This document shows, in pieces, positions 6,682 to 63,241 of a DNA stretch of 64,000 bases (the stretch's first letter is position 1; each line of letters starts with the position of its first letter). The position numbers and the translations under genes are program-made. This DNA is from Acetomicrobium hydrogeniformans. Lineage in GTDB: Bacteria > Synergistota > Synergistia > Synergistales > JAFGMB01. The stretch covers positions 82,026 through 146,025 of the forward strand of contig JAENYO010000004.1 in assembly GCA_016841745.1 (NCBI GenBank), read 5' to 3'. The notes beneath the pieces are model-generated. The model did not search any database. It had not been told where the DNA came from and was given only the letters and a program-made list of their open reading frames with translations.

Positions 6682-6691
6682 AGCATAAGAG

Positions 6692-18098: not shown

Positions 18099-18233
18099 TA
18101 GTGTGCCCCTCAGGATGATTTATATATAAAGTTTCTCGGGACCTTCTTGTTTCCACGGGTCCCAATTCTTTTAGTTCTTAAGACCTATATGTTTTAGTGC
18201 CATTGATATCTGTACTATGGTTCACAGGGGACT

Positions 18234-19988
18234 ATGCTCCCTATTCAGAATATCTATACTTTTAGCTGTGATAGAAATAAATTTATTCTGGAGGGACACA
18301 TGGAATCTGATATTAAGTTTTCCGTAAACGAAGTGGAGAAACAGGAAGGTAATATTTCCGTTACTCAACGTTTACTTATAGAGACTCTTCTAAATAACCT
18401 GCATGATGGTGTGAGGGTAATGGATCGAGAACTCAACGTTATCAGGGTAAACCAGGTGTCCATGAAAAAACACGGTTTATCTGAAGTTCCCGAGAAAGAA
18501 AAATGTTACAGGATCTTCAAAGGCAGAAGTGGTCCTTGTCAGGGATGTCCCTGTATTGTCAGTCTGGAGAAGGGGATCATGGAGAGAAGTATCATGGAGT
18601 GTAACAGTGTAAATGGTCCTACGCTGAATGAAGTTTCTTCTTTTCCAATTGTGGAAGAAGATGGCTCCATATGGGGCGTCATTGAAATTGCAAAGGACAT
18701 TACCGAACAGAAAACACTCCAGGACAAGCTCAAAAAGGAAAAGGAAAAATACAAGGAGCTTTTTGATAACAGCGATAATGCCATTTTCATCCAGATCCTG
18801 AAAGAGGGAAATCTTTCAGAGGAGCTCATGGAAGTGAACAGAATGGCCTGTGAACGTTATGGATACACAAGGGATGAGTTCCTGGCTATGTCGGCTATGG
18901 ACATAGCCATCCCTGAATACCACCCGCTGTTAAAGGAGATGCTAAGTAAAGTCTGGTCAGGTCAGAAGGTAGTGGAACAGCTCTATCACAGGAAACGAAA
19001 CGGTGAGGTTTTTCCTGTGGAGGTTGAAATAAGACCTTATGACCTGGAGGGCAGTGCCGGGATCATCTTCTTTGCCAGGGATATTTCAGGTAAATTTGAG
19101 ACGCGGGATGCTCTCGAGAGCATGGAGAGGCTTTATGCGAATCTTTTTCGGAATAATCACGCTGTAATGCTTGTTATCGATCCTGAAAAGGGAGATCTTA
19201 AAGATGCGAATCCAGCGGCCTGCCGTTACTACGGCTATTCACGGAAAGAAATGCTCCGGTTGAAAGGATGGGATCTCAATGCCCTTTCCGAAAAGGATCA
19301 GCAGGAGGCTATGAGCAAGGCCAAGTCTGGAGAGCAGGAGTTCTTTCAGTTCAAGCACAGGCTGAGCAATGGAGAAACAAGGGATGTTGAGGTCTATACA
19401 GGGCCCATAGAAATGGATGGGAAAAAATACCTTTATTCCATAGTTCATGATATTACAGAAAGAATACTGGCTGAAGAAGCTGCCCACAGGCTCACTACGG
19501 AACTTCTCAAGGCTTCCAGAAAGGATAAACTTACGGGTATTTTCAACAGGGCCTATTTTGAAGAAACCCTTATGCGGGAGATAGATAAGGCCAGGAGATA
19601 CCAGACATGTCTTTCCCTCATAATGTTCGATCTCGACAATTACAAGGAGATAAATGATTCCCTGGGTCACATGGCAGGAGATATGGTCCTTAAAAGGGTT
19701 GCCGAGTCAGTAAATACAAATGTTCGAAAGTCGGATTACCTTGTCAGGTGGGGAGGGGACGAATTCATGATCCTTACTCCCATGAGGCTGCCCAGTGCCT
19801 TGAAACTTGCCGAGAAACTCAGGGGCGTAATTGAAAAACTGGATTGTGGAGTGACTGCCAGTTTCGGAACGGCGGAATTCAGTCGGGAAGATACCATAGA
19901 TCAGCTAACCAGAAGGGTCGACAGAGCCCTTTACCAGGCCAAGGCAAAGGGAAAAAATACTATATCAACCTATGAAGAACCTCTCTGA
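18234..19988 (+). CDS. Cytoplasmic multi-PAS diguanylate cyclase (GGDEF)
   Basis: 584 aa. It carries RKSDYLVRWGGDEF. The C-terminal PAS-GGDEF half is paralogous to the preceding gene. An alternative start is ATG 18300, behind GGAGGG. Confidence 0.85.
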   Translation: MLPIQNIYTFSCDRNKFILEGHMESDIKFSVNEVEKQEGNISVTQRLLIETLLNNLHDGVRVMDRELNVIRVNQVSMKKHGLSEVPEKEKCYRIFKGRSGPCQGCPCIVSLEKGIMERSIMECNSVNGPTLNEVSSFPIVEEDGSIWGVIEIAKDITEQKTLQDKLKKEKEKYKELFDNSDNAIFIQILKEGNLSEELMEVNRMACERYGYTRDEFLAMSAMDIAIPEYHPLLKEMLSKVWSGQKVVEQLYHRKRNGEVFPVEVEIRPYDLEGSAGIIFFARDISGKFETRDALESMERLYANLFRNNHAVMLVIDPEKGDLKDANPAACRYYGYSRKEMLRLKGWDLNALSEKDQQEAMSKAKSGEQEFFQFKHRLSNGETRDVEVYTGPIEMDGKKYLYSIVHDITERILAEEAAHRLTTELLKASRKDKLTGIFNRAYFEETLMREIDKARRYQTCLSLIMFDLDNYKEINDSLGHMAGDMVLKRVAESVNTNVRKSDYLVRWGGDEFMILTPMRLPSALKLAEKLRGVIEKLDCGVTASFGTAEFSREDTIDQLTRRVDRALYQAKAKGKNTISTYEEPL

Positions 19989-34758: not shown

Positions 34759-35688
34759 ATGCCTGTCGATAGTATTCTCGCCAATCCCGTTTTTTTCAGA
34801 CATGTTCTTGAGGAGTTATACGATGGTGTATATATCGTGGATACTTCGAGAAAGATCCTCTTCTGGAACAAGGGTGCTGAAAGGATAACGGGATATACTT
34901 CAGAAAAAGTTCTGGGAAAATGCTGTGCGGATAATATCCTTATGCATGTGGATAACAGGGGAAAAAAACTCTGTCTGGAAGGATGTCCCCTTCATGAGAC
35001 ATTAAAGGATGGACTTGACAGGGAAGTATCTGTATTCCTCCATCACAGTGATGGGTACAGGGTTCCCGTTCTGGTAAGAATTTCTCCTCTCCGTGACAGC
35101 GAAGGAAGGATCATTGGTGCGGTGGAGGTGTTCAGCGATAACACCAAACTGGACAGATCCATGAGGACGATCCGGAAACTGGAAAAGGAAGCCTTTAGAG
35201 ATCCACTTACATCAGTCATGAACAGAAGGTATGGCCATACCTTCATTTCTCTTAAACTCCATGAAATGAAATCCCTTGAGCTGTCTCCACTGGGCCTTCT
35301 TTTCCTGGATATTGATCATTTTAAAAAATTTAATGATTTATACGGCCATCAGGTGGGAGATAATGTTCTTGTAATGGTGGCGGCTACTCTGAAAAACATC
35401 CTGAGGTCGGAAGATCTGGTGTGTCGATGGGGTGGAGAAGAATTTGTAATTGCCCTTCCTGAATCTTCGCTTTCCATGCTGGAGAATGTCGCAGAGAGGA
35501 TAAGGATACTGGTCGAATCTTCTATCTTTACTGAAAATATGGATAGTATGAGGGTTACCGTTTCCATCGGCGGATCTCTGGGAAGGGTCGATGATAGCGC
35601 AGATACCCTCATTAATCGTTCAGATCAGATGATGTACAGAAGTAAGCAGGCCGGGAGAAACATGGTTACTATTGAAGGGGTTTCCTGA
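34759..35688 (+). CDS. PAS-GGDEF diguanylate cyclase
   Basis: 309 aa with a PAS domain carrying CC-x16-C-x3-C, and RSEDLVCRWGGEEF (I-site plus GGEEF). Confidence 0.85.
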   Translation: MPVDSILANPVFFRHVLEELYDGVYIVDTSRKILFWNKGAERITGYTSEKVLGKCCADNILMHVDNRGKKLCLEGCPLHETLKDGLDREVSVFLHHSDGYRVPVLVRISPLRDSEGRIIGAVEVFSDNTKLDRSMRTIRKLEKEAFRDPLTSVMNRRYGHTFISLKLHEMKSLELSPLGLLFLDIDHFKKFNDLYGHQVGDNVLVMVAATLKNILRSEDLVCRWGGEEFVIALPESSLSMLENVAERIRILVESSIFTENMDSMRVTVSIGGSLGRVDDSADTLINRSDQMMYRSKQAGRNMVTIEGVS

Positions 35689-35771: not shown

Positions 35772-36647
35772 ATGAAGGACGAAGGACATGGAGAAAGTGA
35801 AAAAAGGATCTTCAGGATCACGTTGAGGATAGTATTTTTTTATATTCTTATTGCCGGGGGATGGATATTTTTTTCCGATACCCTTATTGAACATCTTGCA
35901 AAATCTCCGGAGCAGCTTTCGAGATTCCAGACCTACAAGGGCTTGTTATTTGTCATCGTGAGCGGCATTCTCCTTTTTTTCTACATCTATGGCGAACTGA
36001 AAGGGCGTTCTATTATAGAAAAAAGATATGAAAATGAGGTTCGTCTCAATTATGAAAGAATGGCAAAAACCCTTGACAGTGCTATAAGGTCCATAAGCAA
36101 GATCCTTGAAACCAAAGATCCCTACACCCAGGGTCACCAGGAGAGAGTGACCCTGCTCGCTGTTGCCATAGCAGGGAAAATGGGTCTTTCAGAAGATGAG
36201 ACTGAATGTCTGAGGATAAGCTCCATGATACATGACATCGGTAAGATCAGCCTTCCCTCCGATCTCCTGACAAAACCTGGTGATCTGTCTGAGCTTGAAT
36301 ACAGGATGATACAGACTCATCCAAAGATGGGGAAGGATATAGTAGACGAGATAGATTTTCCATGTCCGGTAGCCGAGATCATTTCCCAGCATCATGAAAG
36401 GATGGATGGTTCCGGTTATCCTTACGGGCTTAAGGGTGAGAAAATACATCTCTGTTCGAGGATAATAGCAGTAGCTGATGTAGTTGAGACCATGTCTTCC
36501 AATCGCCCCTACAGGGCCGCAGTAGGACTTGATGAAGCTCTTGAAGCTATAAGTAAGGACAGTGAAAGACTGTTTGACCCCCATGTAGTGGAAGCCTGTA
36601 TTGATGTTTTCAGGGAAGATGGGTTTTCTTTTGGAGATAATACTTGA
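35772..36647 (+). CDS. Membrane-anchored HD-GYP c-di-GMP phosphodiesterase
   Basis: It has 2 N-terminal TM segments, HDIGK, and HHERMDGSGYPYGL. Confidence 0.85.
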   Translation: MKDEGHGESEKRIFRITLRIVFFYILIAGGWIFFSDTLIEHLAKSPEQLSRFQTYKGLLFVIVSGILLFFYIYGELKGRSIIEKRYENEVRLNYERMAKTLDSAIRSISKILETKDPYTQGHQERVTLLAVAIAGKMGLSEDETECLRISSMIHDIGKISLPSDLLTKPGDLSELEYRMIQTHPKMGKDIVDEIDFPCPVAEIISQHHERMDGSGYPYGLKGEKIHLCSRIIAVADVVETMSSNRPYRAAVGLDEALEAISKDSERLFDPHVVEACIDVFREDGFSFGDNT

Positions 36648-38553: not shown

Positions 38554-39552
38554 TCAGCCTCCGGGCGGATATGTTATGGCGACCCTGTGTCCGATCTTTG
38601 CAAAAAAGTCAAAGTGTGAATCCTCTTTCATCGGGTGGTTTTCTATAGCTTCCATACTCATGGACCAGATGTCCATGGGATTGGCGGGACCTGTGAGCTC
38701 TTCTGCCAGAGGACTGAATGTCTCATAAAATCGTATTGCTTCCTCTTCAGTTTCAGTTATGTACATAAGGGCATTCAGATTTCCCTGCTCGTGAATGTCT
38801 ATATCGAAGTTGCCCGGGAGGATAAGGTGCCTGTAGTAGAGAAGGAAAAGATGGAATTTCCCTATATCTTGGAAGAGCTGCAAGGGGTCATCATAAAATT
38901 CTTTTCTGACAAAATTCATATAGAAACGATCGGCATGCAGGAGTTTTAATGTGTCCGATGCCGGAGCTACCTTGTGCATATAGTGCACGAAGTCACAATA
39001 ATGAAGGAAAAGCACGTCGATCTCAAGAGATCCTGCTTCCATGCCCCTTTCAACCATCCATCCTTTTATCTCCTGAATGGAGGGGTGACGATCTGTTTGC
39101 CTGTTCTGGGGGAAGGTTTCCCTGATTTCCTTGATGATAGCCATCTCGTTGTATAGCCATCGGGGTTTCTTTGAAGGACTGATGGAGCAGATATCTCCGT
39201 TTTTTAACCCCGGGTAATAGGATAAACGTTGTCCCACATGGAAATTCTTCACGCCCCATCTCCCCACAAAGGATCTGTTCAGTAGCAGGGAAAGCCTGCA
39301 TTTCAGAAGTTCTTTTCCATGATCTTCGGCTGGATCTGCCGGGGTGGCATCATAATAGTATTCCCTGGCTATTTCAGTGAAAGCGTTTCTTCCTGCCGGG
39401 GTCAGAGAATAGGTCCCATTCTCTTTGACCAGAAGTTCTCTTCCCTTCAGGTCCTGCAGGAAAGTCGGGTTTTCTCCAGCCAGATCAACGAGTTCCTCAT
39501 TCCAGCAGGGATAGCCTTTGCTGAAAAGCAGTAAAACATTTTCCCGAGACAT
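38554..39552 (-). CDS. Hypothetical protein, no family recognised (possible N-terminal wHTH)
   Basis: About 332 aa. The ATG at 39552 lies 8 nt after GGAGGAG (the track start at 39561 is a GTG). Codon usage looks coding. I recognise no motif. Confidence 0.6.
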   Translation of the reverse strand: MSRENVLLLFSKGYPCWNEELVDLAGENPTFLQDLKGRELLVKENGTYSLTPAGRNAFTEIAREYYYDATPADPAEDHGKELLKCRLSLLLNRSFVGRWGVKNFHVGQRLSYYPGLKNGDICSISPSKKPRWLYNEMAIIKEIRETFPQNRQTDRHPSIQEIKGWMVERGMEAGSLEIDVLFLHYCDFVHYMHKVAPASDTLKLLHADRFYMNFVRKEFYDDPLQLFQDIGKFHLFLLYYRHLILPGNFDIDIHEQGNLNALMYITETEEEAIRFYETFSPLAEELTGPANPMDIWSMSMEAIENHPMKEDSHFDFFAKIGHRVAITYPPGG

Positions 39553-39714
39553 TCTCAACACTCCTCCGATCCATCTTATTCTTAAGGTTTATCAAGTCTC
39601 TTTCCAGACTATATGTAAGGAGTAGATCTGTCACTATATCTATTGCACAAAAATGATATTTGATCCAATATTCTCCTTTATTGCGGTAAAACCGGCTTAC
39701 CTCGCTCAGCTGTT

Positions 39715-40959
39715 TCAGGATTCCTCTTTTTCATGGAGTCCTGGACCAATGAATTTTTCCAGTCGAAGAGCAAGATACAGTTTCAGGGTGTCCCGGTAAT
39801 TCTTGATTTCTATGTTTCCTATCCTTTTGATCTTTTCCAATCTGTAGTTAAGTGTGTTTCTGTGAATGTGAAGTTCCCGGGCTGCGCTTACCAGAGAAAA
39901 GTTGCTTTCACACCATGTCAGGAAGGTCTGTCTGAGCTCTTCCCAGTCGTTCTGCTGTCTGAAAGCAGCCACGTTTCTCTGGATAAAACGATTTCTCAGG
40001 GCAGGCTGAAGAGATGCCAGGAGTTCTTCAATCCTGTAATCCTGAATATTGTATATACCTGGACCCTGGTTATATTTTTTACCAAGCTGTAAAGCCCGCC
40101 AGGCTTCCTGGTATGAATTGGATAATTCTTCCAGATTCCCGGCCATGGAGCCTATACCGATGGCTGCATTAAGATTCATCTTTGCCAGATCTTCCAGTAT
40201 CTGGCTGCAGGAAGAGGCGGTGTATCTGTAGATCGACCGCTCTCGTCCTGATGGGCTGTTTCCCACGGAATGAAGGATAAAATACTTGTTATTTCCTGTC
40301 ATTACGGAAATATCTGCCGGATCGGGAAAGGCCAGGCGTATCTTTTTCAGGATCTCATTCTTGGTCTTCTGTATAAGGAGTTCAGGGGTTTCTGTTCTGT
40401 CTTCCGAGCAGTCTTTTCGTATTTTTCTGGCATATCTCGCGAACTGGTAGAGATCGACAGCGATGGGGATATAGTGAAATGAAGGGTCAAATCCGAATTC
40501 CCTTGCCCTGGATAAAAGCATTCTACGATCCGATATACCGGAAATGTAATGGGAGATATCGTGAATTATTGTCTGCAGAGTCTCCTCCCTGTTTGTAGCG
40601 TATTCCTGAAGTTCTCTTTCGCGAAGAAGGATCTCAATCTGTTTCTTTACTATAAGCGCGAAGGGTTTTACGTTTACAGGTTTGCCGGTTATGGCCATAG
40701 AACCTACAACTTTACCGGTCATGGACTGAATAGGGTAAGTTACTCCAGGCAGGGTTCCCCTGAATTTCTGTGCTTCTGTTTCGTTAACAGCAGCACCCCG
40801 GTTATACCTGATCACATCAAGGGACTGCTCATGAAGGGAACCGAGTCTAAGGAGGTTGCTAGCTCCTATTATTATCCCTTCCGTATCTGTGATGATCACA
40901 TCATATCCTATAACTTCAGCTGTTGATCCAGCGATCTCGGCAGCCCACTTTGTAAGCAT
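39715..40959 (-). CDS. CdaR/PucR-family regulator (diacid-recognition-like N-domain, C-terminal PucR HTH)
   Basis: 414 aa. The N-terminus reads VIGYDVIITDTEGIIIGASN and the C-terminus reads AARELHIHRNTLNYRLEKIKRI. It is divergent from grdE. Confidence 0.8.
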   Translation of the reverse strand: MLTKWAAEIAGSTAEVIGYDVIITDTEGIIIGASNLLRLGSLHEQSLDVIRYNRGAAVNETEAQKFRGTLPGVTYPIQSMTGKVVGSMAITGKPVNVKPFALIVKKQIEILLRERELQEYATNREETLQTIIHDISHYISGISDRRMLLSRAREFGFDPSFHYIPIAVDLYQFARYARKIRKDCSEDRTETPELLIQKTKNEILKKIRLAFPDPADISVMTGNNKYFILHSVGNSPSGRERSIYRYTASSCSQILEDLAKMNLNAAIGIGSMAGNLEELSNSYQEAWRALQLGKKYNQGPGIYNIQDYRIEELLASLQPALRNRFIQRNVAAFRQQNDWEELRQTFLTWCESNFSLVSAARELHIHRNTLNYRLEKIKRIGNIEIKNYRDTLKLYLALRLEKFIGPGLHEKEES

Positions 40960-41252
40960 TACCTGCCTCCTCTATGTTTTGCCCCCGGTTCTTCATGGTA
41001 AGGGCCATCATCTGATAGTCCCCGAACGTTTTAACAGGGACTCTTATCTGAAGCTTTTCCTGAAAACAAAAGAGGTGTTTGTCTTATTTGTACTATCTGC
41101 ACTAAAAAACACTTCCATGGTACTTTAAATACCATATGATTCGTACGATGTAAATGAGGTTACATCTTCTTATAATTTTTACGTTGGAAAGAGTCTGTTA
41201 AGGGGATATTCATATCCTGTCCCTGAAATATGTAAAAGAAGGAGGCTTCAAT

Positions 41253-42539
41253 ATGAGGTTGGAACTTCATAATGCTTTAGTGAAGGAGATTCAGTGGGGT
41301 GAAAAGACCTCCCTGAAGGATAATGTCCTTTATGTCAACAGGGAAGAAGCCATCGAAGTTGTTGCGGCAGATGAAAATTTTGCTGATGTACAGCTTGAGC
41401 TGGCCCGTCCCGGGGAAAGTGTCAGGATAATACCTGTCAAGGATGTAGTGGAACCAAGGATCAAGCTGGAAGGAGGGACTTCTTTCTTTCCAGGTTTCTG
41501 TGCTCCCATGGAACCGGTAGGCGAGGGTGTAACCTTTGTTCTCAAGGGTGCTTCTGTAATTACCTGCGGTCCCATAGTAGCCTTCCAGGAAGGTTTTATT
41601 GACATGAGCGGTCCCGCCAGTCCCTATAATCCCTTTTCAGAGACCTTTAATGTCGTAATAGTAGCAGAACCTGTTGCAGATCTTGAAAAACATGCCTACG
41701 AGAGATCCCTCAGGGAAGCAGGGCTGAAACTTTCCGTTTACCTTGCTGACCAGTGCAAGGGGACAAAAGCCGATAACGTCGAGGTCTTCGACAAGGGTTC
41801 CATAGTTGAGGAAAACAATAAATACCCGGACCTCCCCAAGATAACCTATTTCTGCATGTCCATTACCCAGGGGCTTCTCCACGATACTTTCCTCTACGGA
41901 GCTGACATGAAGTCCATAGTTCCCACTCTGGTCCATCCCAATGAGATACTTGACGGAGCAATGGTCTCAGGAAACTGCGTTTCCGCCTGTGACAAGAATA
42001 CAACCTTCCATCATGTGAACGATCCTATCGTTCTTGAGCTCTACAAACGTCATGGCAAGGAGATTAATTTCATTGGTGTTATTCCAACTCTTGAAAGCAC
42101 AGTGCTGGCTGGCAAGGAGAGAACCACCTGGATGAATGCCAATCTGGCCAGACAGCTCGGAGCAGATGGTGTAGTTATTTCGGAAGAAGGCTATGGCAAT
42201 CCGGATACCGACCTTTGCATGAATGCCAAGAAGTGTGAAGACTGGGGCATTAAAACTGTAGTTATTTCAGATGAGGCAGCAGGAGTTGATGGTTCCAGCC
42301 AGGGTCTTGCAGATGCGACACCTGAAATGGACGGTTTTGTTTCAGCCGGAAATGTTAATGAGATGATAGAAGTTCCGGCCATGGATAAGATCATAGGATT
42401 CCCGGAAGCCATCGCTTATCTCTCCGGAGGAGCGTCGGACAGTCTGCGTGAGGATGGTTCCATGTATGTTGAACTCCAGTCGATCATTGGTTCCACCAAT
42501 GAGCTGGGATTCAGCAAACTAGGCTGCGAATGGGTCTAG
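41253..42539 (+). CDS. grdE: Glycine/sarcosine/betaine-type reductase component B proprotein (alpha/beta, pyruvoyl-forming)
   Basis: 428 aa. The N-terminus is MRLELHNALVKEIQWGEKTSLKDNVLYVN. An Asn-Cys dipeptide at residues 241-242 (TGC at 41976-41978) sits in the expected self-cleavage position. There is an AAGGAGG RBS. Confidence 0.85.
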   Translation: MRLELHNALVKEIQWGEKTSLKDNVLYVNREEAIEVVAADENFADVQLELARPGESVRIIPVKDVVEPRIKLEGGTSFFPGFCAPMEPVGEGVTFVLKGASVITCGPIVAFQEGFIDMSGPASPYNPFSETFNVVIVAEPVADLEKHAYERSLREAGLKLSVYLADQCKGTKADNVEVFDKGSIVEENNKYPDLPKITYFCMSITQGLLHDTFLYGADMKSIVPTLVHPNEILDGAMVSGNCVSACDKNTTFHHVNDPIVLELYKRHGKEINFIGVIPTLESTVLAGKERTTWMNANLARQLGADGVVISEEGYGNPDTDLCMNAKKCEDWGIKTVVISDEAAGVDGSSQGLADATPEMDGFVSAGNVNEMIEVPAMDKIIGFPEAIAYLSGGASDSLREDGSMYVELQSIIGSTNELGFSKLGCEWV

Positions 42540-42561
42540 TTGAGGTTAAGGAGGTAGAAAA

Positions 42562-43872
42562 ATGACCTACAGGGTTGTTCATTATATAAATCAGTTTTAT
42601 GCAGGAATGGGTGGAGAAGATACAGCCCATGTACCCCCATCATCCCGGGATGGGATAGTGGGTCCCGGCCTTCAGCTTCAGAACCTGCTTCAGGGAGAGG
42701 CAGAAGTCATAGGTACGGTTATCTGCGGTGACAGTTATTACGGTGAAAATATGGAAAAAGCCCAGGCTGAGTGTATTGAAATGATAAAGGCTTTCAAGCC
42801 TGATATGCTTATTGCCGGTCCTGGTTTCAATGCCGGACGTTATGGCGTTGCCTGCGGTGATATCTGTGCAGCTGCGGGAGAAATGCTTGGAATCCCTACA
42901 GTTACAGCCCTTTATGGGGAAAATCCCGGTGTCGAAATGTACCATAAAAAAACATACATTGTCGAAACCAGTGACAGCGCCAGGGGTATGAGAGATGCCC
43001 TGTCCAGAATGGTGACTCTAGCTTTGAAACTGCTGAAAAAAGAGAAACTCGGTACTGCCCGCTTTGAAGGCTATATCCACAGAGGTATCCGTAAAAGCTT
43101 TTTCCATGAAAAGTCGGGGGCAGAAAGAGGAGTTGATATGCTTCTCAAGAAGATCCGGGGAGAAGCTTTTGAAACAGAACTTGAAATGCCGGTATTCAAA
43201 AAGATAGATCCGGCAGCTCCCATAGCAGACCTGAGTAAGGTTACTATTGCCCTTTGTACTTCCGGCGGTATTGTTCCCTTTGGTAATCCTGATCACATAA
43301 GGGTTTCCTCTGCTGAAAAATTCGGCAAATACAATATTTCCGAACTCAAAGACCTTACATCGGAAAATTATGAGTCCATCCATGGAGGTTATGACAGGGT
43401 TTATGCGAACGATAACCCCGATGTAGTCCTTCCCCTTGATATTATGCGAGAGATGGAAAAAGAAGGGGTTTTCGCCAAACTTCATGATTTCGTTTACTGT
43501 ACTACCGGAACCGGTACAGCAGTAGCCAATGCCGAAGGTTTCGGCCAGGCCATCGGCAAGGAACTGAAAGAGGCTGGTGTTGATGCCGTCATTCTGACAT
43601 CCACCTGAGGTACCTGTACTCGATGCGGTGCATCGATGGTTCGGGAAATAGAGAAAGAAGCAGGTATCCCTGTAGTCCAGATAGCAACAATAGTACCTAT
43701 AATGCTCACAGTTGGAGCTAACAGGATAGTTCCCGGTGTAGCTATTCCTCATCCGGTAGGAGATCCTGAATCAGGACCCGAAGGAGACAGGAAGAAGAGA
43801 AGAGAGCTCCTTCAGAGGGCTTTCAAGGCCATGTCTACAGAAATAAAGGAACAGACCATATTTAAAGACTAA
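42562..43872 (+). CDS. grdB: Reductase component B selenoprotein subunit; in-frame UGA (43606-43608) read as selenocysteine
   Basis: Track ORFs 42562..43608 and 43636..43872 are in the same frame. The junction reads ILTST-U-GTCTRCGASMVREIEKEAGIPVV, which is the UxxCxxC selenoprotein B motif. A hairpin starts 12 nt downstream of the UGA. Confidence 0.9.
43620..43636 (+). promoter_or_regulatory. Candidate SECIS hairpin for grdB
   Basis: UCGAUGC-GGU-GCAUCGA forms a perfect 7-bp stem with GGU at the apex. It starts 12 nt after the UGA. Confidence 0.65.
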
Positions 43873-43943
43873 AACAGGTTTCAGGGACAGAATCTACTTT
43901 TCTGTCCCTTTACGAATGAATTCAATTGAAAGGGGGTGCACAA

Positions 43944-44420
43944 ATGGGCAAATTAACAGGGAAAAAACTGCTTCTCCTGGGAGAAAGAGACGGAGTTCCA
44001 GGGCCAGCTATGGAAGCGTGTCTTAAAGACACAGGAGCAGAGATAGTATTTTCAGTTACGGAATGTTTTGTCTGAACTGCGGCAGGTGCTATGGATTTGC
44101 AGAATCAGCAGAGAATCAAGGATGCAGGCGATAAATATGGCAAAGAGAACCTGGTAGTTGTACTTGGTTCTTCAGATGCCGAGGGTGCCGAGATCTATGC
44201 TGAAACCGTTGCAAACGGAGATCCGACTTTTGCAGGTCCACTGGCCGGAGTCCAGTTGGGACTCGCCGTATATGACATTTTTGAAGATGAAATTCGCAAC
44301 GAAGCTGATGAAACCGCGTGGGAAGAGAATATCTCCATGATGGAGATGGTTCTGGATACTGACGGTCTCTGTGCAGCAGTCAAATCAATGAGAGAAGAGT
44401 TCAGTCAATTTTCTATCTAA
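43944..44420 (+). CDS. grdA: Selenoprotein A of glycine-type reductases; in-frame UGA (44073-44075) read as selenocysteine
   Basis: The ATG at 43944 follows AAGGGGGTG. The product begins [62 protein letters not shown]..., which contains the CxxU motif. The track lists only the post-UGA part (44091..44420). Confidence 0.92.
44077..44102 (+). promoter_or_regulatory. Candidate SECIS stem-loop for grdA
   Basis: CUGCGG...UUGCAG forms the lower stem (including G-U pairs), with a short upper stem and a GGUGCUA apical loop. It was folded by eye only. Confidence 0.4.
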
Positions 44421-44444
44421 AGGTTTCCCCCCTTTGGATATTCC

Positions 44445-44467
44445 GGGCGGGGCTTTCTGCCCCGTCC
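44445..44467 (+). other. GC-rich intercistronic stem-loop between grdA and grdX, with no U-tract
   Basis: GGGCGGGGC-uuucu-GCCCCGUCC forms 9 bp, one of them a G-U pair. It is followed by ACCGGAUAAAAAUG. Confidence 0.5.
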
Positions 44468-44507
44468 ACCGGATAAAAATGTATGTGTCTGAAGGAAGTG
44501 TTCACAG

Positions 44508-44852
44508 TTGAAAGTTATAAGCAACAATCCTTTTGTTCTGAAGAAGATAGAAGATAATCATCCCGTCAGCGGAAATCCCCTGGACGTGCTTCTGGAAGTC
44601 AGGAAGTTTCTTGAATCGGGTCATAAACTTGTGACTATGCCTTTGCCTGCAAACCAGAGGCTTTTCATGAATCCCTACAGATCCATCCTTGTAGATAAAC
44701 CTTCAAAGGACATGGATATGAAGGGACTGGTTCTTCTGGAAAAAGCAGTGGAGAGATTCCGCTCACAGGTTTTTTATGATGATCAGGGAGCAGATGGAGA
44801 TTTTGCTCTTATGGACCTGGAACAGGTCATGATCTCCATGAAGATGGTATGA
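44508..44852 (+). CDS. grdX: GrdX-family protein
   Basis: 114 aa. MKVISNNPFVLKKIED...VTMPLPANQRL resembles small GrdX proteins encoded in grd operons. The start is TTG, behind GAAGGAAG. Confidence 0.65.
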   Translation: MKVISNNPFVLKKIEDNHPVSGNPLDVLLEVRKFLESGHKLVTMPLPANQRLFMNPYRSILVDKPSKDMDMKGLVLLEKAVERFRSQVFYDDQGADGDFALMDLEQVMISMKMV

Positions 44853-44923
44853 TCTCAGAAAACCTTTTTACTGATCACATATTTCAGACCATGATCAGGT
44901 CATCTTTACAGGAGGTCAATAAC

Positions 44924-46447
44924 ATGAGGTTATCTTCAATTCTTGCACCGACAACCAGGAATAATCCGGCAAAAGTAAAGGATCAGCGACTTATAAGGCT
45001 TGTAAAGGCCGGATATGCTGTTTATGACAATTCTGCTGAAGAAATACTGCTCACTCCTTTGGGCATGGGGTTACTCGCGCAGGTTTCAGGAAAATTAAAA
45101 GAAACCTTCGAAAACAGAGGTGCTCAGGAAATATCGGGTAACCATAATGAAGCTGCATTCGCTTTGATGGTAAGGGTACTGAAAACACAAGATCAGCTTC
45201 CGCTGATCCTTATGGAGGAAAAGAACCGGAATATCCAGCTTACAGCTTTTTCCGCTGTGGAAGACAATGTTTCGACACAAATGGAAACTTGTCTTCAGAC
45301 CTGCCGGGAAGCTTTGCTTTCCCGGGGTATGAGGATCTTCTCATTGAAAGAGGTCATTTCCAGCGGAGAGAGGATCGCTATGGTTGTAGAAGGAGATAAA
45401 AAGGCCCTTGGATCAAGGGACGGTCTTGTCTGCCCGTCATGTGGATGGAAGGGGTTCACCTCTTCTCCCATGGGCAAAAACACCGTCTCTCATGGAGGAA
45501 AAGAAGAACTTGAAGAAATATATACTCCGGGAGCTACAACCATTGTTGAACTATGCAGGCAGCTGGATCTGCCCCCTTCTCAGACATTAAAGACCATGTT
45601 CTATGCGATGGATAATGGAACCGGTCAGCTTGTGGTTGCTCTGATGAGAGGGGACAGGGATATTTCCCTTGAGAAGCTTTCTTTTTACCTTGGAGGGGTA
45701 AAACTCAGGAGAGCAACTGAGAACGAGCTGAAAGATGCCATAGGGGAAGTCGCCGGATTCTGTGGTCCCATAGGACTGCCGGAAGAAATAACAGTAGTAG
45801 CAGATGAAAGCGTTGAGGGTGCAATAAACCTGGCAGCAGGTGCCAACAAACCGGATTTCCATTTCAGAGGTGCATGCTGGGAAAGGGATTTCAAAGCCGA
45901 TATGGTGCGCGATATAGCCGCCTTCGGAAAGGATACCCCCTGTCCTTCCTGTGGAGAAATGATGGATAAGGGCTATTTTACAGAGCTAGGTGCTTTCTAT
46001 TTTACAAGACATCTTTCTGAAGACTATCCTTCTTTAAATTACATCAATGAAAACAGGGAAAAATGCTATCCCAAGGTATGGAGGGGAACCATAGATCTGG
46101 AACAGTTATTGCTCTCCGTCATGGGTTATGGTTCTGACAATCTGGCCGGGTGGTCTGCCTTTGACATTCATCTTATCGCTGCTCTTTCCAGGGAAGATGC
46201 TCTTTTTGCTGAAGTTGAGGACTTATACGATCGTCTTTCATCAAAAAACTTAAGAGTGCTCTTTGATGATCGGGATAAAAAGATAAACTCGAAACTGGAT
46301 GATTCCGTAGAAATGGGAATCCCTGTAAAAGTTCTGGCTGGAAAGGATACTTCAGGTGGTATGGAACTGGAAGTCTGGACCAGTGAAAGAGAGGGTATTA
46401 TCTTAAGCCCCGAAGACCTGGAAAAACATCTGTTCACTTTCAAATAG
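44924..46447 (+). CDS. Prolyl-tRNA-synthetase paralog retaining the INS/YbaK-type editing domain and anticodon-binding domain, with degenerate class II catalytic motifs
   Basis: The ATG at 44924 lies 8 nt after AGGAGG. An alternative start is ATG 44849, overlapping the grdX stop. MRLSSILAPTTRNNPAKVKDQRLIRLVKAGY aligns to the bacterial ProRS N-terminus. The INS region reads TLKTMFY...LVVALMRGDRDISLEKL...GFCGPIG...AAGANKPDFHF. The C-terminal part, LRVLFDDRDKKINSKLDDSVEMGIPVKVLAG, is an anticodon-binding domain. The motif 2 (FRDE...R) and motif 3 (GxGxGxxR) positions are not conserved. Confidence 0.75.
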   Translation: MRLSSILAPTTRNNPAKVKDQRLIRLVKAGYAVYDNSAEEILLTPLGMGLLAQVSGKLKETFENRGAQEISGNHNEAAFALMVRVLKTQDQLPLILMEEKNRNIQLTAFSAVEDNVSTQMETCLQTCREALLSRGMRIFSLKEVISSGERIAMVVEGDKKALGSRDGLVCPSCGWKGFTSSPMGKNTVSHGGKEELEEIYTPGATTIVELCRQLDLPPSQTLKTMFYAMDNGTGQLVVALMRGDRDISLEKLSFYLGGVKLRRATENELKDAIGEVAGFCGPIGLPEEITVVADESVEGAINLAAGANKPDFHFRGACWERDFKADMVRDIAAFGKDTPCPSCGEMMDKGYFTELGAFYFTRHLSEDYPSLNYINENREKCYPKVWRGTIDLEQLLLSVMGYGSDNLAGWSAFDIHLIAALSREDALFAEVEDLYDRLSSKNLRVLFDDRDKKINSKLDDSVEMGIPVKVLAGKDTSGGMELEVWTSEREGIILSPEDLEKHLFTFK

Positions 46448-46565
46448 CTGTATCTTTTTCAACTTGAATTCACAGTATTCTTTTCTGTACTGAAAGTGAA
46501 AAATTTCATTCTGGTTCTCTTCGAAGGTTGATGGTTGAACAACAGAACTGAAGGGAGAGAAATAC

Positions 46566-47927
46566 ATGGAACAGAAACGAGAAAGTTGGGGTAGCCGCTT
46601 TGGCTTTATTATGGCAACAGCTGGTTTTGCAATAGGACTTGGGAATATATGGAGATTTCCCTACATGGTAGGAACCAATGGAGGCGGAGCCTTTCTGGTT
46701 GTTTACCTGGCCATCTGTTTTACTATATGCGTACCTCTTTTTATCGCAGAGATCAGTCTTGGGAGAAAGACACGGCTCAATCCCATTCAGGGAATGCAGA
46801 AACTGACCCGCAAAGGCAGTCCCTGGGTAATGATCGGCTGGATAGGAGCCATCGCATGTGTTCTTCTGATGTCCTATTACCTGATGGTCATTGGCTGGAT
46901 GGCAGCATATTTTGTCAAGGCTCTTACAGGGGTCTTTGCAGGAGCAACACCCGAACAGACAAGTGTTATGTATGACACTTTTGTTTCTGACCCGCTACAG
47001 GTGGGTGCTTATACTCTTGGAGTTGTTGTGGTACTTGGTGTTATCGTTACCCGGGGTCTCAAAGACGGAGTCGAGAAGGCCTGTAAATGGATGCTTCCAG
47101 CTCTTATGATAATGCTCCTTATTCTGGCAGCAAAATCTCTCATGATGTCTCCCCAGGTTGAAGGTGCGGCAGGTGCTATGGCCGGCCTCAAATGGTATGT
47201 AACCCCTGATTTCTCAAAGATAAATGGCGGTGTGGTCCTTGCAGCACTGGGTCAGGCCTTCTTCTCAATCGGCATTGGTATAGCATGTGCCTTTGTATAC
47301 GGCAGCTATCTTGCTCCCGATTCAGATCTTCCCGCAGATGCTACAATTGTTATCGCCCTTGATACGGGAATTGCTGTTGTAGCAGGACTGGTTATCTTTC
47401 CGGCCCTCTTCTGCTTTGGAATGGATCCCCAGGCTGGTCCCGGTCTTCTTTTCAAGACCATGCCTGTTATTTTCGGCCAGCTTCCTGGTGGAAGTATTTT
47501 TGCCTCCATGTTTTTCTTCCTTGTGGTTCTGGCAGGTCTCACATCCGGTATGGGCTACCTTGAAGCTCCAGCAGCGACCTTTTCCGAGCTTTTCGGGATC
47601 AGCAGGAAAAAGTCAGTATGGGGTATTCTTGCCATTATGTATATCCTCGGTATTCCTTCCATTCTTTCACAGGGTCCATGGAGTCATATACTGATCTTTG
47701 GAAGGAATTTCTTTGACCTTGCAGACTACATATCCGGCAATGTCATGATGCCGGTGGATGCCCTTCTCATTGCCATTTACACTGCCTTTGTGTGGAAGTT
47801 TGCCAACTTCAAAGATGATAGCAACGTGGGAGCAAAGACCTTCAGGATCGCCAATTCATGGAAGCCCTTTGTTGTCGCTGTTGTTCCTGTGGCCGTTTTG
47901 ATAATCATGATAACAGCCATTTTTTAA
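46566..47927 (+). CDS. Neurotransmitter:sodium symporter (NSS/SNF) family transporter
   Basis: GFIMATAGFAIGLGNIWRFPYMVGTNGGGAFLVVYL is the NSS signature. 453 aa. Confidence 0.9.
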   Translation: MEQKRESWGSRFGFIMATAGFAIGLGNIWRFPYMVGTNGGGAFLVVYLAICFTICVPLFIAEISLGRKTRLNPIQGMQKLTRKGSPWVMIGWIGAIACVLLMSYYLMVIGWMAAYFVKALTGVFAGATPEQTSVMYDTFVSDPLQVGAYTLGVVVVLGVIVTRGLKDGVEKACKWMLPALMIMLLILAAKSLMMSPQVEGAAGAMAGLKWYVTPDFSKINGGVVLAALGQAFFSIGIGIACAFVYGSYLAPDSDLPADATIVIALDTGIAVVAGLVIFPALFCFGMDPQAGPGLLFKTMPVIFGQLPGGSIFASMFFFLVVLAGLTSGMGYLEAPAATFSELFGISRKKSVWGILAIMYILGIPSILSQGPWSHILIFGRNFFDLADYISGNVMMPVDALLIAIYTAFVWKFANFKDDSNVGAKTFRIANSWKPFVVAVVPVAVLIIMITAIF

Positions 47928-47966
47928 GTTTACTTGAGCATTTCCTCTTATCTTATCTACGCCATG

Positions 47967-48007
47967 GAGAATGGAGGACGCCTGCAGGCGTCCTCCATTC
48001 TCTTTTT
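47967..48007 (+). terminator. Intrinsic terminator closing the grd-NSS transcription unit
   Basis: GAGAATGGAGGACGCC-tgca-GGCGTCCTCCATTCTC followed by TTTTT. Confidence 0.85.
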
Positions 48008-48451: not shown

Positions 48452-49600
48452 TTGACCAATACCCTTTTTAAGCTCTTTGCCGGGAACTATGCTATTTTCG
48501 GTTTTTCTACCATTTTCTTCTTTTTCGCACCCTACCTTAGCTTTCATAGTTTCCCTCCCCACCTTACGGGCTGGGTGATAGGAGCATTCTATGCTTCTTC
48601 GACGCTGGTCAAACCCTTTGCAGGAATGCTTATGGAGAATCTAGGTGTCAGAAGATCCTTGATAATAGCCGGCTTTCTTGGTTTGTCCAGCGGTATTGGC
48701 CTAATAGTGGCACCCATGGCCTTTTTACCTCTCTTTTCCCTTAGGCTTGTTATGGGGCTTTCCTTCGGCATATTCATGGTAGGTCTTACGGCATACCAGA
48801 ATATTATGGTTCCCGATTCAGAACGGGGCACCTCCTTTGCAGTGACAACCATAGGCAGCATCTGTCCCATGTTTACCCTTATGCCTGTGTGCGATATGCT
48901 TATCAGTTCGAATAATTTTGGGATTTACCTGCTCTTACCTGCTTTTATGGGTGGAATATGTACATTTCTTGCATTTTCTCTGGATAAAGTGAGTGGAGTA
49001 AGGGGTGCGGAGGATCGTGCATGGGGGAGTTATAGTGATCTTTTCAGGGAAGCGCCACTGGGACGACTTGCCTTGACAGTCGTTTTCTTTGCCTTTGTCG
49101 ATGCCTCTGTTATCTACATCTCCAGCCTGGCTTTTTATCAGGGGTTAAGTCCTTCTTTTTTTATGGTAGCTTTAGCAGGAGGAGCCATTTTTATCAGAAT
49201 GGCGGGTCGGAACTATTTCAACAGGACTCCCAGGATCCTTATTATGGGGCCATCTCTGTTTTGTATGGGAATAGCTCTTTTTATGGCTACAATTCTTAAA
49301 AACAATGTTTTTCTTGCCTTTACCGGTTTTATCTATGGTCTGGGAATGGGCTATGGCTTCCCGGCCCTTCTTTCTCTGGCAGGAGACCTGGTTCCCATTT
49401 ACCTGAGACCCAAGATAACCTCTTTTATCCTCTTTTTCATGGATCTGAGCTGGTTCCTCCTTCCCCTTTATATAGGTTATGTTTCCTCATTGGGAGGGAT
49501 AGTCCTTGCATATAGACTGATGGCCATAGCTTCCGTTATCCTTGCAAGTCTGATGCATCTTATATGGCTCAACTTCCACAGAAAGAAAGGGAGCTTATGA
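48452..49600 (+). CDS. MFS transporter
   Basis: 382 aa with about 12 TM segments. The TTG start follows GAGGAGAGG. Confidence 0.75.
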   Translation: MTNTLFKLFAGNYAIFGFSTIFFFFAPYLSFHSFPPHLTGWVIGAFYASSTLVKPFAGMLMENLGVRRSLIIAGFLGLSSGIGLIVAPMAFLPLFSLRLVMGLSFGIFMVGLTAYQNIMVPDSERGTSFAVTTIGSICPMFTLMPVCDMLISSNNFGIYLLLPAFMGGICTFLAFSLDKVSGVRGAEDRAWGSYSDLFREAPLGRLALTVVFFAFVDASVIYISSLAFYQGLSPSFFMVALAGGAIFIRMAGRNYFNRTPRILIMGPSLFCMGIALFMATILKNNVFLAFTGFIYGLGMGYGFPALLSLAGDLVPIYLRPKITSFILFFMDLSWFLLPLYIGYVSSLGGIVLAYRLMAIASVILASLMHLIWLNFHRKKGSL

Positions 49601-50472
49601 TACAGGAAAAAAAAGGTACCATATACGGAGTACTATGCTTAGGTGTATTGTGTATTTCCACTGGAGCCATCTTTGCACGGGTTGCAGATGCTCCACCCCT
49701 TGCCATTGCTGCATACCGGGTTGGAATTGCCGGGCTTCTGCTCCTGCCGGCGGCTTTATTCAAAAGGAAACAGGAATTTTTGTTACTTCAAAAAAAAGAC
49801 TGGATCCTGGGTATTGTTTCCGGCGCTTTTCTTGCCCTTCACTTTTTTACCTGGATAAGTTCCCTGGAAAAAACTACAGTGGCAACGAGTGTTGTCCTTG
49901 TGAACACAAGTCCAATCTGGGCGGCCATGATAGCCCCCCTTATGGGAGACAGGATCTCAAGATTGACCTTTGCAGGTATTTTTCTCAGTTTTTCAGGAGC
50001 TTCTGTCATCGGCTGGAATGACCTGCAGCTGGGAGGCGGAGCTTTCTATGGGGATATCCTTGCCATCCTGGGAGCACTTTTCCTGACCGGTTATCTCTTT
50101 GGAGGAAGAATTCTAAGAAGAAAACTCTCCCTTCTGGCCTATATCACCATCTGTTACTGTTCGGCGGGGGTGTTCCTCTGGATGGCAGTTCTGTTAACAG
50201 GTACCCGTTTTACCGGTTTTTCCGGAATGACCTGGTTGATGTTTCCAGCCATGGCTATTATTCCACAGATCCTTGGGCACAGCTCCTACAACTGGGCATT
50301 GAAGTACCTGAGTGCTCCCATGGTGGCTATCAGCCTCCTTGGTGAGCCTGTGGGAAGCACTCTTCTTGCCATGGTTTTCCTGGGGGAGGCTTTAACCTGT
50401 ACCACTGTCGCAGGGGCGCTGATGATAATGGCTGGTATCGTCCTCGCTGCAAGGGGTGAAATTAAGAATTGA
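49597..50472 (+). CDS. EamA/DMT-family transporter
   Basis: The ATG at 49597 overlaps the MFS stop (ATGA). It has 10 TM segments in two EamA repeats. Confidence 0.8.
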   Translation: MIQEKKGTIYGVLCLGVLCISTGAIFARVADAPPLAIAAYRVGIAGLLLLPAALFKRKQEFLLLQKKDWILGIVSGAFLALHFFTWISSLEKTTVATSVVLVNTSPIWAAMIAPLMGDRISRLTFAGIFLSFSGASVIGWNDLQLGGGAFYGDILAILGALFLTGYLFGGRILRRKLSLLAYITICYCSAGVFLWMAVLLTGTRFTGFSGMTWLMFPAMAIIPQILGHSSYNWALKYLSAPMVAISLLGEPVGSTLLAMVFLGEALTCTTVAGALMIMAGIVLAARGEIKN

Positions 50473-62547: not shown

Positions 62548-62922
62548 TCAGATGGTTTTAGCAACCTCTATACCTGCCACGGCAGCCACAATTCCGAGGA
62601 TCTGCCCAACCCCCATATAAAGAATGGCAGAAAGCCAGCTTGACGTTTTTATAAGGTTTAGAGTTTCAAAGGTCATGGTGGAAAAAGTAGTGAAGGAACC
62701 TACAAAACCTGTCAGAATAATAAAACTCACCGATCTTGGTACAAGGAATCTTTCTTCGGCAAGGGTCCAGAGCAGACCGAAAAGGAGACAGCCCAGAACG
62801 TTCACTGCCATGGTTCCCCAGGGAAATCCATTACCGGTCTGTCCGTGTATCCAGGAGCAGAGAGCATAATGGCTTAATGCCCCAAGACCTCCCGCTATAA
62901 CAAGCAATAATACTGTTTTCAT
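62548..62922 (-). CDS. crcB: Fluoride channel CrcB/FluC
   Basis: 124 aa with 4 TM segments. It has GTMAVNVLGCLLFG and GFVGSFTTFST, and sits behind a fluoride riboswitch. Confidence 0.9.
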   Translation of the reverse strand: MKTVLLLVIAGGLGALSHYALCSWIHGQTGNGFPWGTMAVNVLGCLLFGLLWTLAEERFLVPRSVSFIILTGFVGSFTTFSTMTFETLNLIKTSSWLSAILYMGVGQILGIVAAVAGIEVAKTI

Positions 62923-63004
62923 GTGGCGTTGACCTCTTGTGAACTTCCCCTGTCAGTTCAAGTGTACAAAAAAACTGCACCCAGGGGCTTTAGCTGAAGA
63001 TAGA

Positions 63005-63057
63005 AAGGCGTCATAAGCTCCTTTAATGCAGCGGTTCAAGGCGAACGCCATCGCCTG
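63005..63057 (-). promoter_or_regulatory. Fluoride riboswitch (crcB RNA motif)
   Basis: The minus-strand RNA is AGGCGAUGGCGUUCGCCUUGAACCGCUGCAUUAAAGGAGCUUAUGACGCCUUUC. It matches the conserved GGCGAUGG..UUCGCC..AACCGC....CUnAUGAnGCCU core. A U7 tract lies at 62961-62967, with a possible competing stem CUGCAUU/GGUGCAG. Confidence 0.85.
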
Positions 63058-63241
63058 TATTTACGATCAATTCAGCGCAGATTTTATCAAAGTGCGATCT
63101 CTTTGTAAATCCTTGTTTCCGATTATTCACAAATAGTTCAGTTACCATTTCTTCTGAAAAGACCAGGAGTGAAAAAGAATACATCTGCAGCCGGGAAATT
63201 CATGGATCTGAAAATCGCATGTTTTTTCTCTTGCCTAATTA

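Follow-up and report, generated by a model that had tools for sequence, protein, structure and literature searches.

We analysed a 64,000-nucleotide (nt) stretch of contig JAENYO010000004.1 from Acetomicrobium hydrogeniformans (assembly GCA_016841745.1, positions 82,026 to 146,025), hereafter the window, which carries a selenoprotein reductase module of the glycine reductase type. A cdaR-like regulator gene lies divergent from an operon comprising grdE, grdB, grdA and grdX, a gene derived from prolyl-tRNA synthetase (ProRS) and a gene for an NSS transporter. The GrdE and GrdB proteins belong to a separate lineage, here called clade A, which in Synergistota is most likely an extra protein-B front end and not a replacement of the canonical, riboswitch-controlled glycine reductase operon. 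We consider it probable that the module as a whole represents such a separately regulated protein B/A front end, accompanied by a pseudo-prolyl-tRNA synthetase (pseudo-ProRS) and the NSS transporter.

The placement of the module is based on a genome scan, from which the 80 best GrdE loci were annotated with seed proteins, and on neighbour-joining trees built for GrdE and for read-through GrdB from these loci. The closest GrdE homologues of the window are all from Synergistota, among them a 98% identical protein encoded in the same gene order, including the NSS gene, on OY762654.1, the complete 2.95-Mb chromosome of a Synergistales metagenome-assembled genome (MAG). Clade A comprises the window and approximately 20 genome loci with GrdE 65-98% identical to that of the window, every other locus among the 80 best has a GrdE at most 57% identical, and both trees separate clade A from all canonical sequences. 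The clade is almost restricted to Synergistota, with two contigs carrying the labels Desulfovibrionaceae and Adiutricaceae; among cultured bacteria, Dethiosulfovibrio, Synergistes jonesii and Cloacibacillus carry orthologues with 68-70% identity. The locus occurs in sequencing runs mainly from metagenomes of marine sediments, cold seeps and algae-associated samples. An exact-sequence lookup of the window GrdE returned no record. A 50%-identity library contains 1297 representatives of the superfamily, which shows its great diversity, but it could not resolve the clades and merged clade A with the canonical clade (best representative 51% identical).

Scores on curated family models agree with a position outside the characterised types. 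The window GrdB scored 583.6 bits on the glycine model TIGR01917 (cut-off 602.2), 607 on TIGR01918, 651 on the GrdF sarcosine model NF040794 (cut-off 800) and 522 on the GrdH betaine model NF040795 (cut-off 775), and GrdE scored 535 on the GrdG sarcosine model NF040793 (cut-off 780). The FarE model NF053623 gave 197 bits (cut-off 675), and the proline reductase models PrdA and PrdB (TIGR04480 and TIGR04483) gave partial matches of 55 and 93 bits against cut-offs of 700 and 300, respectively. The GrdB models were calibrated with seven GrdB proteins that were grdCD-linked or otherwise outside clade A and with four from within it. Canonical Firmicutes GrdB scored 730-774 on TIGR01917 and 694-736 on the GrdF model, one canonical Synergistota GrdB 677 and 696, a grdCD-less Clostridia copy (L046) 651 and 654, and clade-A GrdB 566-603 and 636-666. 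On the GrdG model, GrdE scored 660-665 for canonical Firmicutes, 592 for canonical Synergistota and 535 for the window. Sarcosine reductase (GrdF/GrdG), nominally the best hit, was rejected as an assignment because canonical glycine proteins outscore clade A on these same models; clade A is further from them than ordinary glycine reductases are, so the label provides no evidence for sarcosine and is, judged from the scores, an artefact of model scale. Clade-A GrdB is about as distant from canonical GrdB as the latter is from the betaine model. Each subunit carries 11 clade-specific substitutions at positions at least 90% conserved within both groups, including E247R, N317T, H373Q, C375A and S381M in GrdB. 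A PDB sequence search with GrdE and GrdB found no solved relatives, so these variable positions cannot be mapped to a binding site.

An ordinary split glycine reductase was the alternative named by the sequence-only reading, in which GrdE and GrdB would fall within the canonical glycine clade and a complete grdCD-trx set would lie elsewhere in the same regulon. The separate trees, the identity ceiling of 57% and the GrdB score below the glycine cut-off contradict the former. A grdCD-trx set was indeed found in relatives, but together with its own grdE, grdA and grdB and a glycine riboswitch, which identifies the window module as an additional paralogue and not as half of a split enzyme. The MAG UBA4066 contains both types (clade-A locus L012 and canonical locus L029), and on one contig (L015) a clade-A module is convergent with an adjoining full canonical set. 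Genes for GrdC and GrdD occur near clade A only within a separate neighbouring set (L015, L017), never inside the module.

Gene order also distinguishes the two types. The clade-A core consists of a divergent cdaR and grdE-grdB, usually followed by grdX. A cdaR orthologue is divergent from grdE in 17 of the 20 clade-A genome loci, two of the three exceptions having too short an upstream sequence, and is also present in metagenome loci L088, L090, L094, L096, L098 and L099. In most clade-A loci grdX follows grdB, although it was undetected in those of the L006 type, whereas it is the first gene of canonical operons. The latter have the order grdX-trxB-trxA-grdE-grdA-grdB-grdC-grdD in Firmicutes and NSS-grdX-trxA-grdE-grdA-grdB-grdC-grdD in Synergistota (L029, L030, L038, L053, L057, L062 and others). 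Downstream of the core, clade-A loci end in several different tails: grdA-grdX-pseudoProRS-NSS in the window, L008, L001 and metagenome loci L088, L090 and L110; grdX-trxA-grdA in L013, L016, L022 and L050; pseudoProRS directly after grdB in L006, L021 and L092-L100; and an unannotated 360-amino-acid (aa) protein in L003, which is encoded upstream of the module in L014. A 360-aa gene after grdX in Dethiosulfovibrio proved unrelated to the ProRS paralogue and has no family match. Clustering of neighbouring genes over the clade-A loci recovered nothing consistent outside cdaR, grdE, grdB and grdX.

Open reading frame (ORF) listing and translation confirmed the gene order given in the sequence-only reading, strands included, and its coordinates overall, with small corrections: the two selenocysteine (Sec) codons lie 3 nt upstream of the positions suggested by the ORF ends, and the ProRS-like gene starts at 44924. 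All genes of the operon are on the forward strand, and strong ribosome-binding sites are present. The first, grdE (41253-42539), encodes a 428-aa proprotein of protein B matching PF09338 over its full length (633 bits); residues N241, C242 and C246 of its GNCVSACD motif are invariant in the clade-A alignment, and N241/C242 is the predicted pyruvoyl-forming cleavage site. It is followed by grdB (42562-43872), encoding a 436-aa selenoprotein B that matches the whole PF07355 profile (542 bits), with an in-frame UGA at 43606-43608 specifying Sec349 within TSTUGTCTRCGA and the U-x-x-C-x-x-C motif intact. Directly after this codon, a selenocysteine insertion sequence (SECIS) element at 43609-43646 (+) matches the Rfam model RF01990 (SECIS_4) with 41.9 bits against a gathering score of 38 and folds at -14 kcal/mol (z = -2.15). 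The third gene, grdA (43944-44420; start codon and ribosome-binding site read from the sequence), encodes the 158-aa selenoprotein A (NF040748, 255 bits, cut-off 130; PF04723, 250 bits) with Sec44, specified by the UGA at 44073-44075, in the context CFVUTAAGAMD, and a CxxU motif (ECFVU). No Rfam SECIS model matched grdA, and the fold 3' of its UGA was not significant. Between grdB and grdA, a hairpin GGGACAG-N11-CTGTCCC followed by TTTACG (43884-43908, +) may be a processing site or influence the expression of grdA. The 114-aa product of grdX (44508-44852) scored 74 bits on the GrdX model NF038093 (cut-off 40). The ProRS-like ORF was listed from 44849, and we place its start at the ATG at 44924 (44924-46447, 507 aa) because homologues align only from Met26 and an AGGAGG precedes this ATG by 8 nt. 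The last gene (46566-47927) encodes a 453-aa NSS (SLC6-type) Na+-coupled transporter (PF00209, 182 bits; NF037979, 140 bits, cut-off 50), and the operon ends in an intrinsic terminator at 47966-48003 (+; feature drawn to 48010) with a 17-bp stem containing 10 G-C pairs, a 4-nt loop and a T run. The cdaR-like gene and the divergent operon, through grdX and the dead ProRS paralogue to the NSS gene, are best explained as a single regulon, a reading in which we have reasonable confidence.

The regulation of the module differs from that of canonical operons. The regulator gene (39715-40959, reverse strand) encodes a protein with Diacid_rec (114 bits), GGDEF_2 (47 bits) and PucR-type helix-turn-helix (HTH_30, 62 bits) domains, which places it in the CdaR/PucR family, but with 120 bits it is far from the cut-off of 612 for the equivalog of Escherichia coli CdaR. 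These domains, together with the divergent orthologues in relatives, support the CdaR/PucR-type control of the operon that had been read from the sequence. Five cdaR-grdE intergenic regions from the sublineage of the window (GrdE proteins 82-98% identical) were aligned, and the sole strongly conserved stretch is a 30-nt block, TTTAAATACCATATGATTCGTACGATGTAAA (41124-41155, +), just downstream of which lies a TATAAT -10 box (41171-41176, +) without a good -35. A conserved block abutting a -10 box of this kind suggests an activator-dependent promoter, and from their sequence and position the two elements are candidates for a CdaR operator and the grdE promoter that it would activate. Canonical Synergistota loci carried a glycine riboswitch in all eight cases tested, seven directly upstream of grdX and one (L029) upstream of trxA, compared with none of eight clade-A loci. 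The window likewise yielded no glycine riboswitch over its whole length at the gathering score, and neither a glycine nor any other riboswitch over 40800-44600 at a permissive threshold (E <= 1); the sequence-only reading had seen no glycine riboswitch core in 40960-41252.

The absence of component C and thioredoxin genes from the window, also claimed in that reading, was borne out. Pfam scans of all ORFs of at least 150 aa in the 64 kb found no GrdC, GrdD or thioredoxin reductase, and a tblastn search with TrxA, TrxB, GrdC and GrdD seeds from two loci (Clostridium fallax and a Synergistaceae) found no match at E <= 1e-3. The module has its own protein B, protein A and importer, but it is not autonomous and would have to borrow protein C and thioredoxin.

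The retention of a pyruvoyl-forming GrdE and the recurrence of grdA or trxA-grdA in clade-A loci argue for the standard route from protein B to protein A, as summarised in PMC10838667 (citing Andreesen 2004). In the mechanism that we propose, the substrate would be imported by the NSS permease, and GrdE would cleave itself at N241/C242 to form a pyruvoyl group, with which an X-CH2-COO- compound could form an imine or iminium through its primary or secondary amine. Sec349 of GrdB would then attack the alpha-carbon with expulsion of the amine, and the carboxymethyl group would pass to Sec44 of the co-encoded GrdA. GrdCD would convert this group to acetyl phosphate and the thioredoxin system would re-reduce GrdA, the genes for both lying beyond the window. 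These last components would presumably be supplied by the canonical operon, by analogy with the proposal for the far operon of Cloacibacillus (PMC10838667). We infer the shared use of protein C and thioredoxin, the chemistry and the nature of the inducer of the operon.

The ProRS-like product retains, in its predicted structure, the three-domain fold of bacterial ProRS, so that this part of its earlier description stands, but it is a pseudo-synthetase and not a synthetase. Pfam detected the editing (PF04073, tRNA_edit) and anticodon-binding (PF03129, HGTP_anticodon) domains but no PF00587 (tRNA-synt_2b), and the ProRS equivalogs NF006625 and TIGR00409 gave 148 and 97 bits against cut-offs of 558 and 307. 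An AlphaFold2 model (predicted local distance difference test score, pLDDT, 89.7) retrieved full-length Enterococcus faecalis ProRS (2j3l/2j3m) at the top of a Foldseek search, with template modelling (TM) scores of 0.81-0.83 and E = 1e-41. Alignment with true ProRS shows a deletion of the 33-residue segment before the PTHEE region and of the motif 2 loop (KfRDEPRPRgGliRvREF), as well as replacement of motif 3 (GcYGIG-gR), whose consensus is lost across the family, and of the GIEVGH-FKLGT region. On this sequence evidence, the protein is predicted to be incapable of aminoacylation.

The editing site, on the other hand, is preserved. Across 28 family members 39 columns are invariant, mostly in the editing domain (T201, P202, A204, I207, L210, K223, G278, G281, P282, H313, W319, R321 and D322) and in a four-cysteine knuckle (C170, C173, C340 and C343), and the TPGA-TI-EL pocket residues are conserved. 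We take K223, the G-x-x-G-P loop (278-282), H313 and I207/L210 to correspond to K279, the GXXXP loop, H369 and I263/L266 of the E. coli INS domain. In E. coli these residues catalyse the hydrolysis of Ala-tRNAPro and set the size limit of the site. The protein is therefore most likely, to judge from these motifs, a trans-editing deacylase directed at tRNAPro through an INS-type site, and its putative role in the operon would be protection against a proline- or alanine-like substrate. The family comprises approximately 39 clusters, all source-named members of which are from Synergistota, with a clear score gap from real ProRS; no true ProRS was present in any fetched locus, in a search meant to show which type of ProRS Synergistota have. 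Of 80 metagenome pseudo-ProRS loci, 15 are either immediately downstream of clade-A grd genes or next to the linked NSS gene, and these are the most similar to the window protein (38-63% identity); the remoter rest stand alone. We found no description of such a pseudo-ProRS in the literature. Short forms of approximately 420 aa without the anticodon-binding domain occur in L143 (8001-13943), L150, L167 and about ten more metagenome loci, where they are followed by an M24 peptidase with a Creatinase/Prolidase N-terminal domain (not in L150), a Peripla_BP_6 fusion and an AMP-binding enzyme.

The picture drawn in the sequence-only reading, in which a protein B specific for its substrate is joined by a selenoprotein A and an importer under CdaR/PucR control and no glycine riboswitch, is supported, as is its caution that the sequence cannot name the substrate. 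The depth of divergence, the fixed substitutions, the dedicated ligand-type regulator and the coexistence with a riboswitch-controlled canonical operon lead us to lean slightly towards a substrate other than glycine. Of the individual candidates we would name an N-substituted glycine, for instance sarcosine, first, if only tentatively. The module may instead be a second glycine reductase protein B/A set controlled by a protein rather than a riboswitch, for example one induced by peptide- or collagen-derived signals, and we regard this as a real but lesser possibility. All catalytic hallmarks of glycine-type protein B are retained, and in one sublineage the genes for HypD and its activase beside cdaR would suit the co-induction of a glycine sink during the fermentation of collagen peptides. 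Plain isozymes, however, look like the near-identical duplicates found in Terrisporobacter (L077), whereas clade A has 52-57% identity to canonical GrdB and GrdE, lower scores on every curated model and fixed substitutions where canonical sequences are conserved; the occurrence of both types in the same genomes and the riboswitch split of eight of eight against none of eight likewise speak against a plain isozyme. Several further observations weigh against the favoured reading of an extra front end. Clade-A GrdB lies close to the TIGR01917 cut-off, with one member (L013) just above it at 603.2, and the NSS protein of the window is a paralogue (41% identical) of the transporter beside canonical glycine operons, both of which also favour a glycine isozyme. 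Neighbours outside the cdaR-grdE-grdB-grdX core are heterogeneous and indicate no single substrate, and that this organism has grdCD, trx and a canonical operon we infer only from its relatives. The pseudo-ProRS family is mostly without grd linkage (approximately 60 of the 80 metagenome loci), and its placement here may reflect one ancestral gene-order event and not a functional tie. Finally, transcript contigs from marine-sediment metatranscriptomes reach the 3' end of grdA, grdX, the pseudo-ProRS and NSS genes and the cdaR side, but with low depth and 90-99% identity they derive from a diverged strain and are too sparse to define a transcript.

In another reading, clade A is an independently evolved reductase for sarcosine or another N-alkylglycine, and the INS site of the dead ProRS clears tRNAPro mischarged with the imported secondary-amine isomer of alanine. 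The retained pyruvoyl group needs a primary or secondary amine (PMC10838667 and its references) and the protein-A route implies an X-CH2-COO- substrate; the pseudo-ProRS gene lies directly downstream of clade-A genes in two sublineages (38-100% pseudo-ProRS identity) with invariant pocket-lining INS residues, and the short forms adjoin an M24 enzyme with a Creatinase/Prolidase N-terminal domain. Nevertheless, canonical glycine proteins are closer to the GrdF/GrdG models than clade A is, the clade-A modules have no gene for creatinase or sarcosine production beside them, most pseudo-ProRS genes are not beside grd genes, and the library searched contained nothing on misactivation of sarcosine by ProRS, leaving this reading unlikely. 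A broader version seems to us about equally doubtful: clade A would reduce a Stickland-type electron acceptor that no Grd lineage has so far been shown to use, either an N-substituted glycine (sarcosine, for instance, by convergence) or a secondary amine linked to substrates rich in proline or hydroxyproline. The co-transcribed dead ProRS would be a substrate-coupled tRNAPro proofreading factor that guards translation when the proline- or alanine-like compound is abundant in the cell, an inactivated ancestral ProRS kept by Synergistota purely for trans-editing. A reductase acting specifically on a secondary amine derived from proline or hydroxyproline, with the ProRS-like protein as a proline-related accessory, is quite improbable. 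The accessory does derive from ProRS, HypD and activase genes share the direction of cdaR in six loci (L006, L010, L021, L094, L098 and L099), and NSS homologues lie beside an OCD-family gene (L169) and ornithine transcarbamylase (OTCase) genes (L168). The HypD link, however, is confined to one close lineage and the window lacks it; GrdE and GrdB are of the Grd type over their full length and remote from PrdA and PrdB; the association with grdA or trxA-grdA implies a carboxymethyl transfer that proline cleavage does not use; and the proline and ATP site of the synthetase is destroyed. Least credible, to the point of being negligible, is the idea that a duplicated grd operon is decaying here or has been left as a remnant without function. 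Although the lack of nearby component C and thioredoxin genes, a grdA SECIS undetected by the model and a degenerate synthetase paralogue would fit such a remnant, all ORFs are intact, strong ribosome-binding sites are present, both Sec contexts are conserved, a SECIS follows the grdB codon, the core is kept across 65-98% identity in approximately 20 genomes and further metagenome loci, and the pseudo-ProRS has its 39 invariant columns and a confident model.

Compared with known systems, the module shares its domain architecture with canonical glycine reductase of the Clostridium sticklandii and Peptoclostridium acidaminophilum type in Clostridia and of Synergistota loci L029, L053 and L057, including the predicted cleavage site between N and C in GrdE, the GrdB U-x-x-C-x-x-C with SECIS, the GrdA CFVU and grdX. 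It differs in its 52-57% identity and separate clade for both subunits, in its GrdB score under the TIGR01917 cut-off, in gene order, E-B-(A)-X against X-(trx)-E-A-B-C-D, in having a CdaR-type regulator instead of a glycine riboswitch, and in the absence of grdCD and trx from the locus. In concept it resembles the sarcosine (GrdG/GrdF) and betaine (GrdI/GrdH) systems of P. acidaminophilum, in which each substrate has a protein-B module of its own, often accompanied by a transporter, that supplies the common proteins A and C. The window proteins nonetheless fall short of the sarcosine (535 of 780 and 651 of 800) and betaine (522 of 775) cut-offs, scoring lower than ordinary glycine proteins do, and GrdE keeps its pyruvoyl cysteines, unlike GrdI of betaine reductase. 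The fluoroacetate reductase farACEB of the Synergistota Cloacibacillus and Pyramidobacter is likewise a stand-alone protein-B-type module with its own transporter, and it depends on genes elsewhere for GrdA and protein C (PMC10838667). FarE lacks the processing cysteines and FarB the C-x-x-C (PMC10838667), both of which are kept in the window, where, unlike in farACEB, there is no radical-SAM partner. The pseudo-ProRS has an INS-type fold in common with the bacterial ProRS INS domain and the free-standing editors ProXp-ala and YbaK (PMC3973320, PMC10164551), but its editing domain forms part of a ProRS scaffold of full length that has lost motifs 2 and 3 and usually keeps the anticodon-binding domain.

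Both P. acidaminophilum and Synergistota are known to have several protein-B paralogues served by a common A and C, and PMC10838667 reports eight grdB genes in C. porcorum and presents a map that includes an SLC6 symporter. A split B/A module is thus not new in kind, and the accessories that were initially called unusual, while present as described, are so only in a relative sense, as split multi-copy protein-B loci have already been described for Synergistota (PMC10838667). We did not find described in the literature a conserved cdaR-grdE-grdB-grdX clade apart from the glycine-riboswitch operon, nor the distinction of this clade from the known sarcosine and betaine types. Glycine-type selenoprotein reductases are energy-conserving electron sinks of amino-acid fermenters, and the compounds they accept decide what such bacteria can respire in guts, digesters and sediments. 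Clade A is a concrete candidate for a new acceptor specificity, for which automatic best-hit labels as sarcosine reductase are misleading. The pseudo-ProRS family provides a clean case of a synthetase that has lost synthesis and kept its proofreading site, and its recurrence behind a reductase operon suggests a possible tie between the catabolism of amino-acid analogues and translational quality control.

The transporter and the HypD genes were also examined as leads to the substrate. The window NSS protein is 54-66% identical to homologues in Clostridia, where the contexts are mixed, comprising the OCD-family and OTCase genes already mentioned, a sigma-54 two-component system and another non-canonical GrdE/GrdB pair, and as a substrate clue they were not decisive. 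The last of these contexts is L171 (3-3503; transporter named Tissierella praeacuta), in which the pair is directly followed by an NSS gene with a product 54% identical to that of the window. Its GrdB scores 619 on the GrdF model, 603.5 on TIGR01917 and 560 on the GrdH model, and has the clade-A variants TTGTGT and xIHGG, yet is closer to Firmicutes GrdB. In the six loci with HypD (2639-7152 in L006), cdaR is followed on the same strand by genes for a glycyl-radical activase and HypD, a trans-4-hydroxy-L-proline dehydratase scoring 1191 bits on NF043068 (cut-off 1100), so that hydroxyproline catabolism genes are paired with a divergent grdE-grdB-pseudoProRS operon. As a general clue this link was set aside, being limited to one close lineage (HypD 92-96% identical) with no HypD in the window.

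Other genes near the module and elsewhere in the window were noted in passing. A 335-aa protein without a Pfam or NCBIfam match is encoded next to cdaR (38554-39561, reverse strand), with homologues beside clade A in L001, L008 and L017. Just past the terminator, on the forward strand, are genes for an MFS transporter (48452-49600), homologues of which recur near clade-A modules in L008, L011 and L019, and an EamA-type carboxylate/amino acid/amine transporter (49564-50472); both could be product exporters. In L013 (5688-8186, reverse strand), L016 and L050 the gene adjoining cdaR encodes a full-length leucyl-tRNA synthetase, which is probably a housekeeping gene whose adjacency may be coincidental. 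Within 25 kb upstream of the module lie three PAS-GGDEF diguanylate cyclase genes (15978-19988 and 34759-35688, +) and an HD-domain (HD_5, HD) gene (35772-36647). Further upstream, a lysine 2,3-aminomutase gene (AblA-type, 602 bits, cut-off 525) followed by an M20 peptidase-family gene (5404-7945, +) suggests beta-lysine metabolism. Towards the far end of the window, a fluoride riboswitch (RF01734, 47 bits; 62998-63064, reverse strand) upstream of a gene for a 124-aa CrcB-like membrane protein (62548-62922) forms a standard fluoride-export unit.

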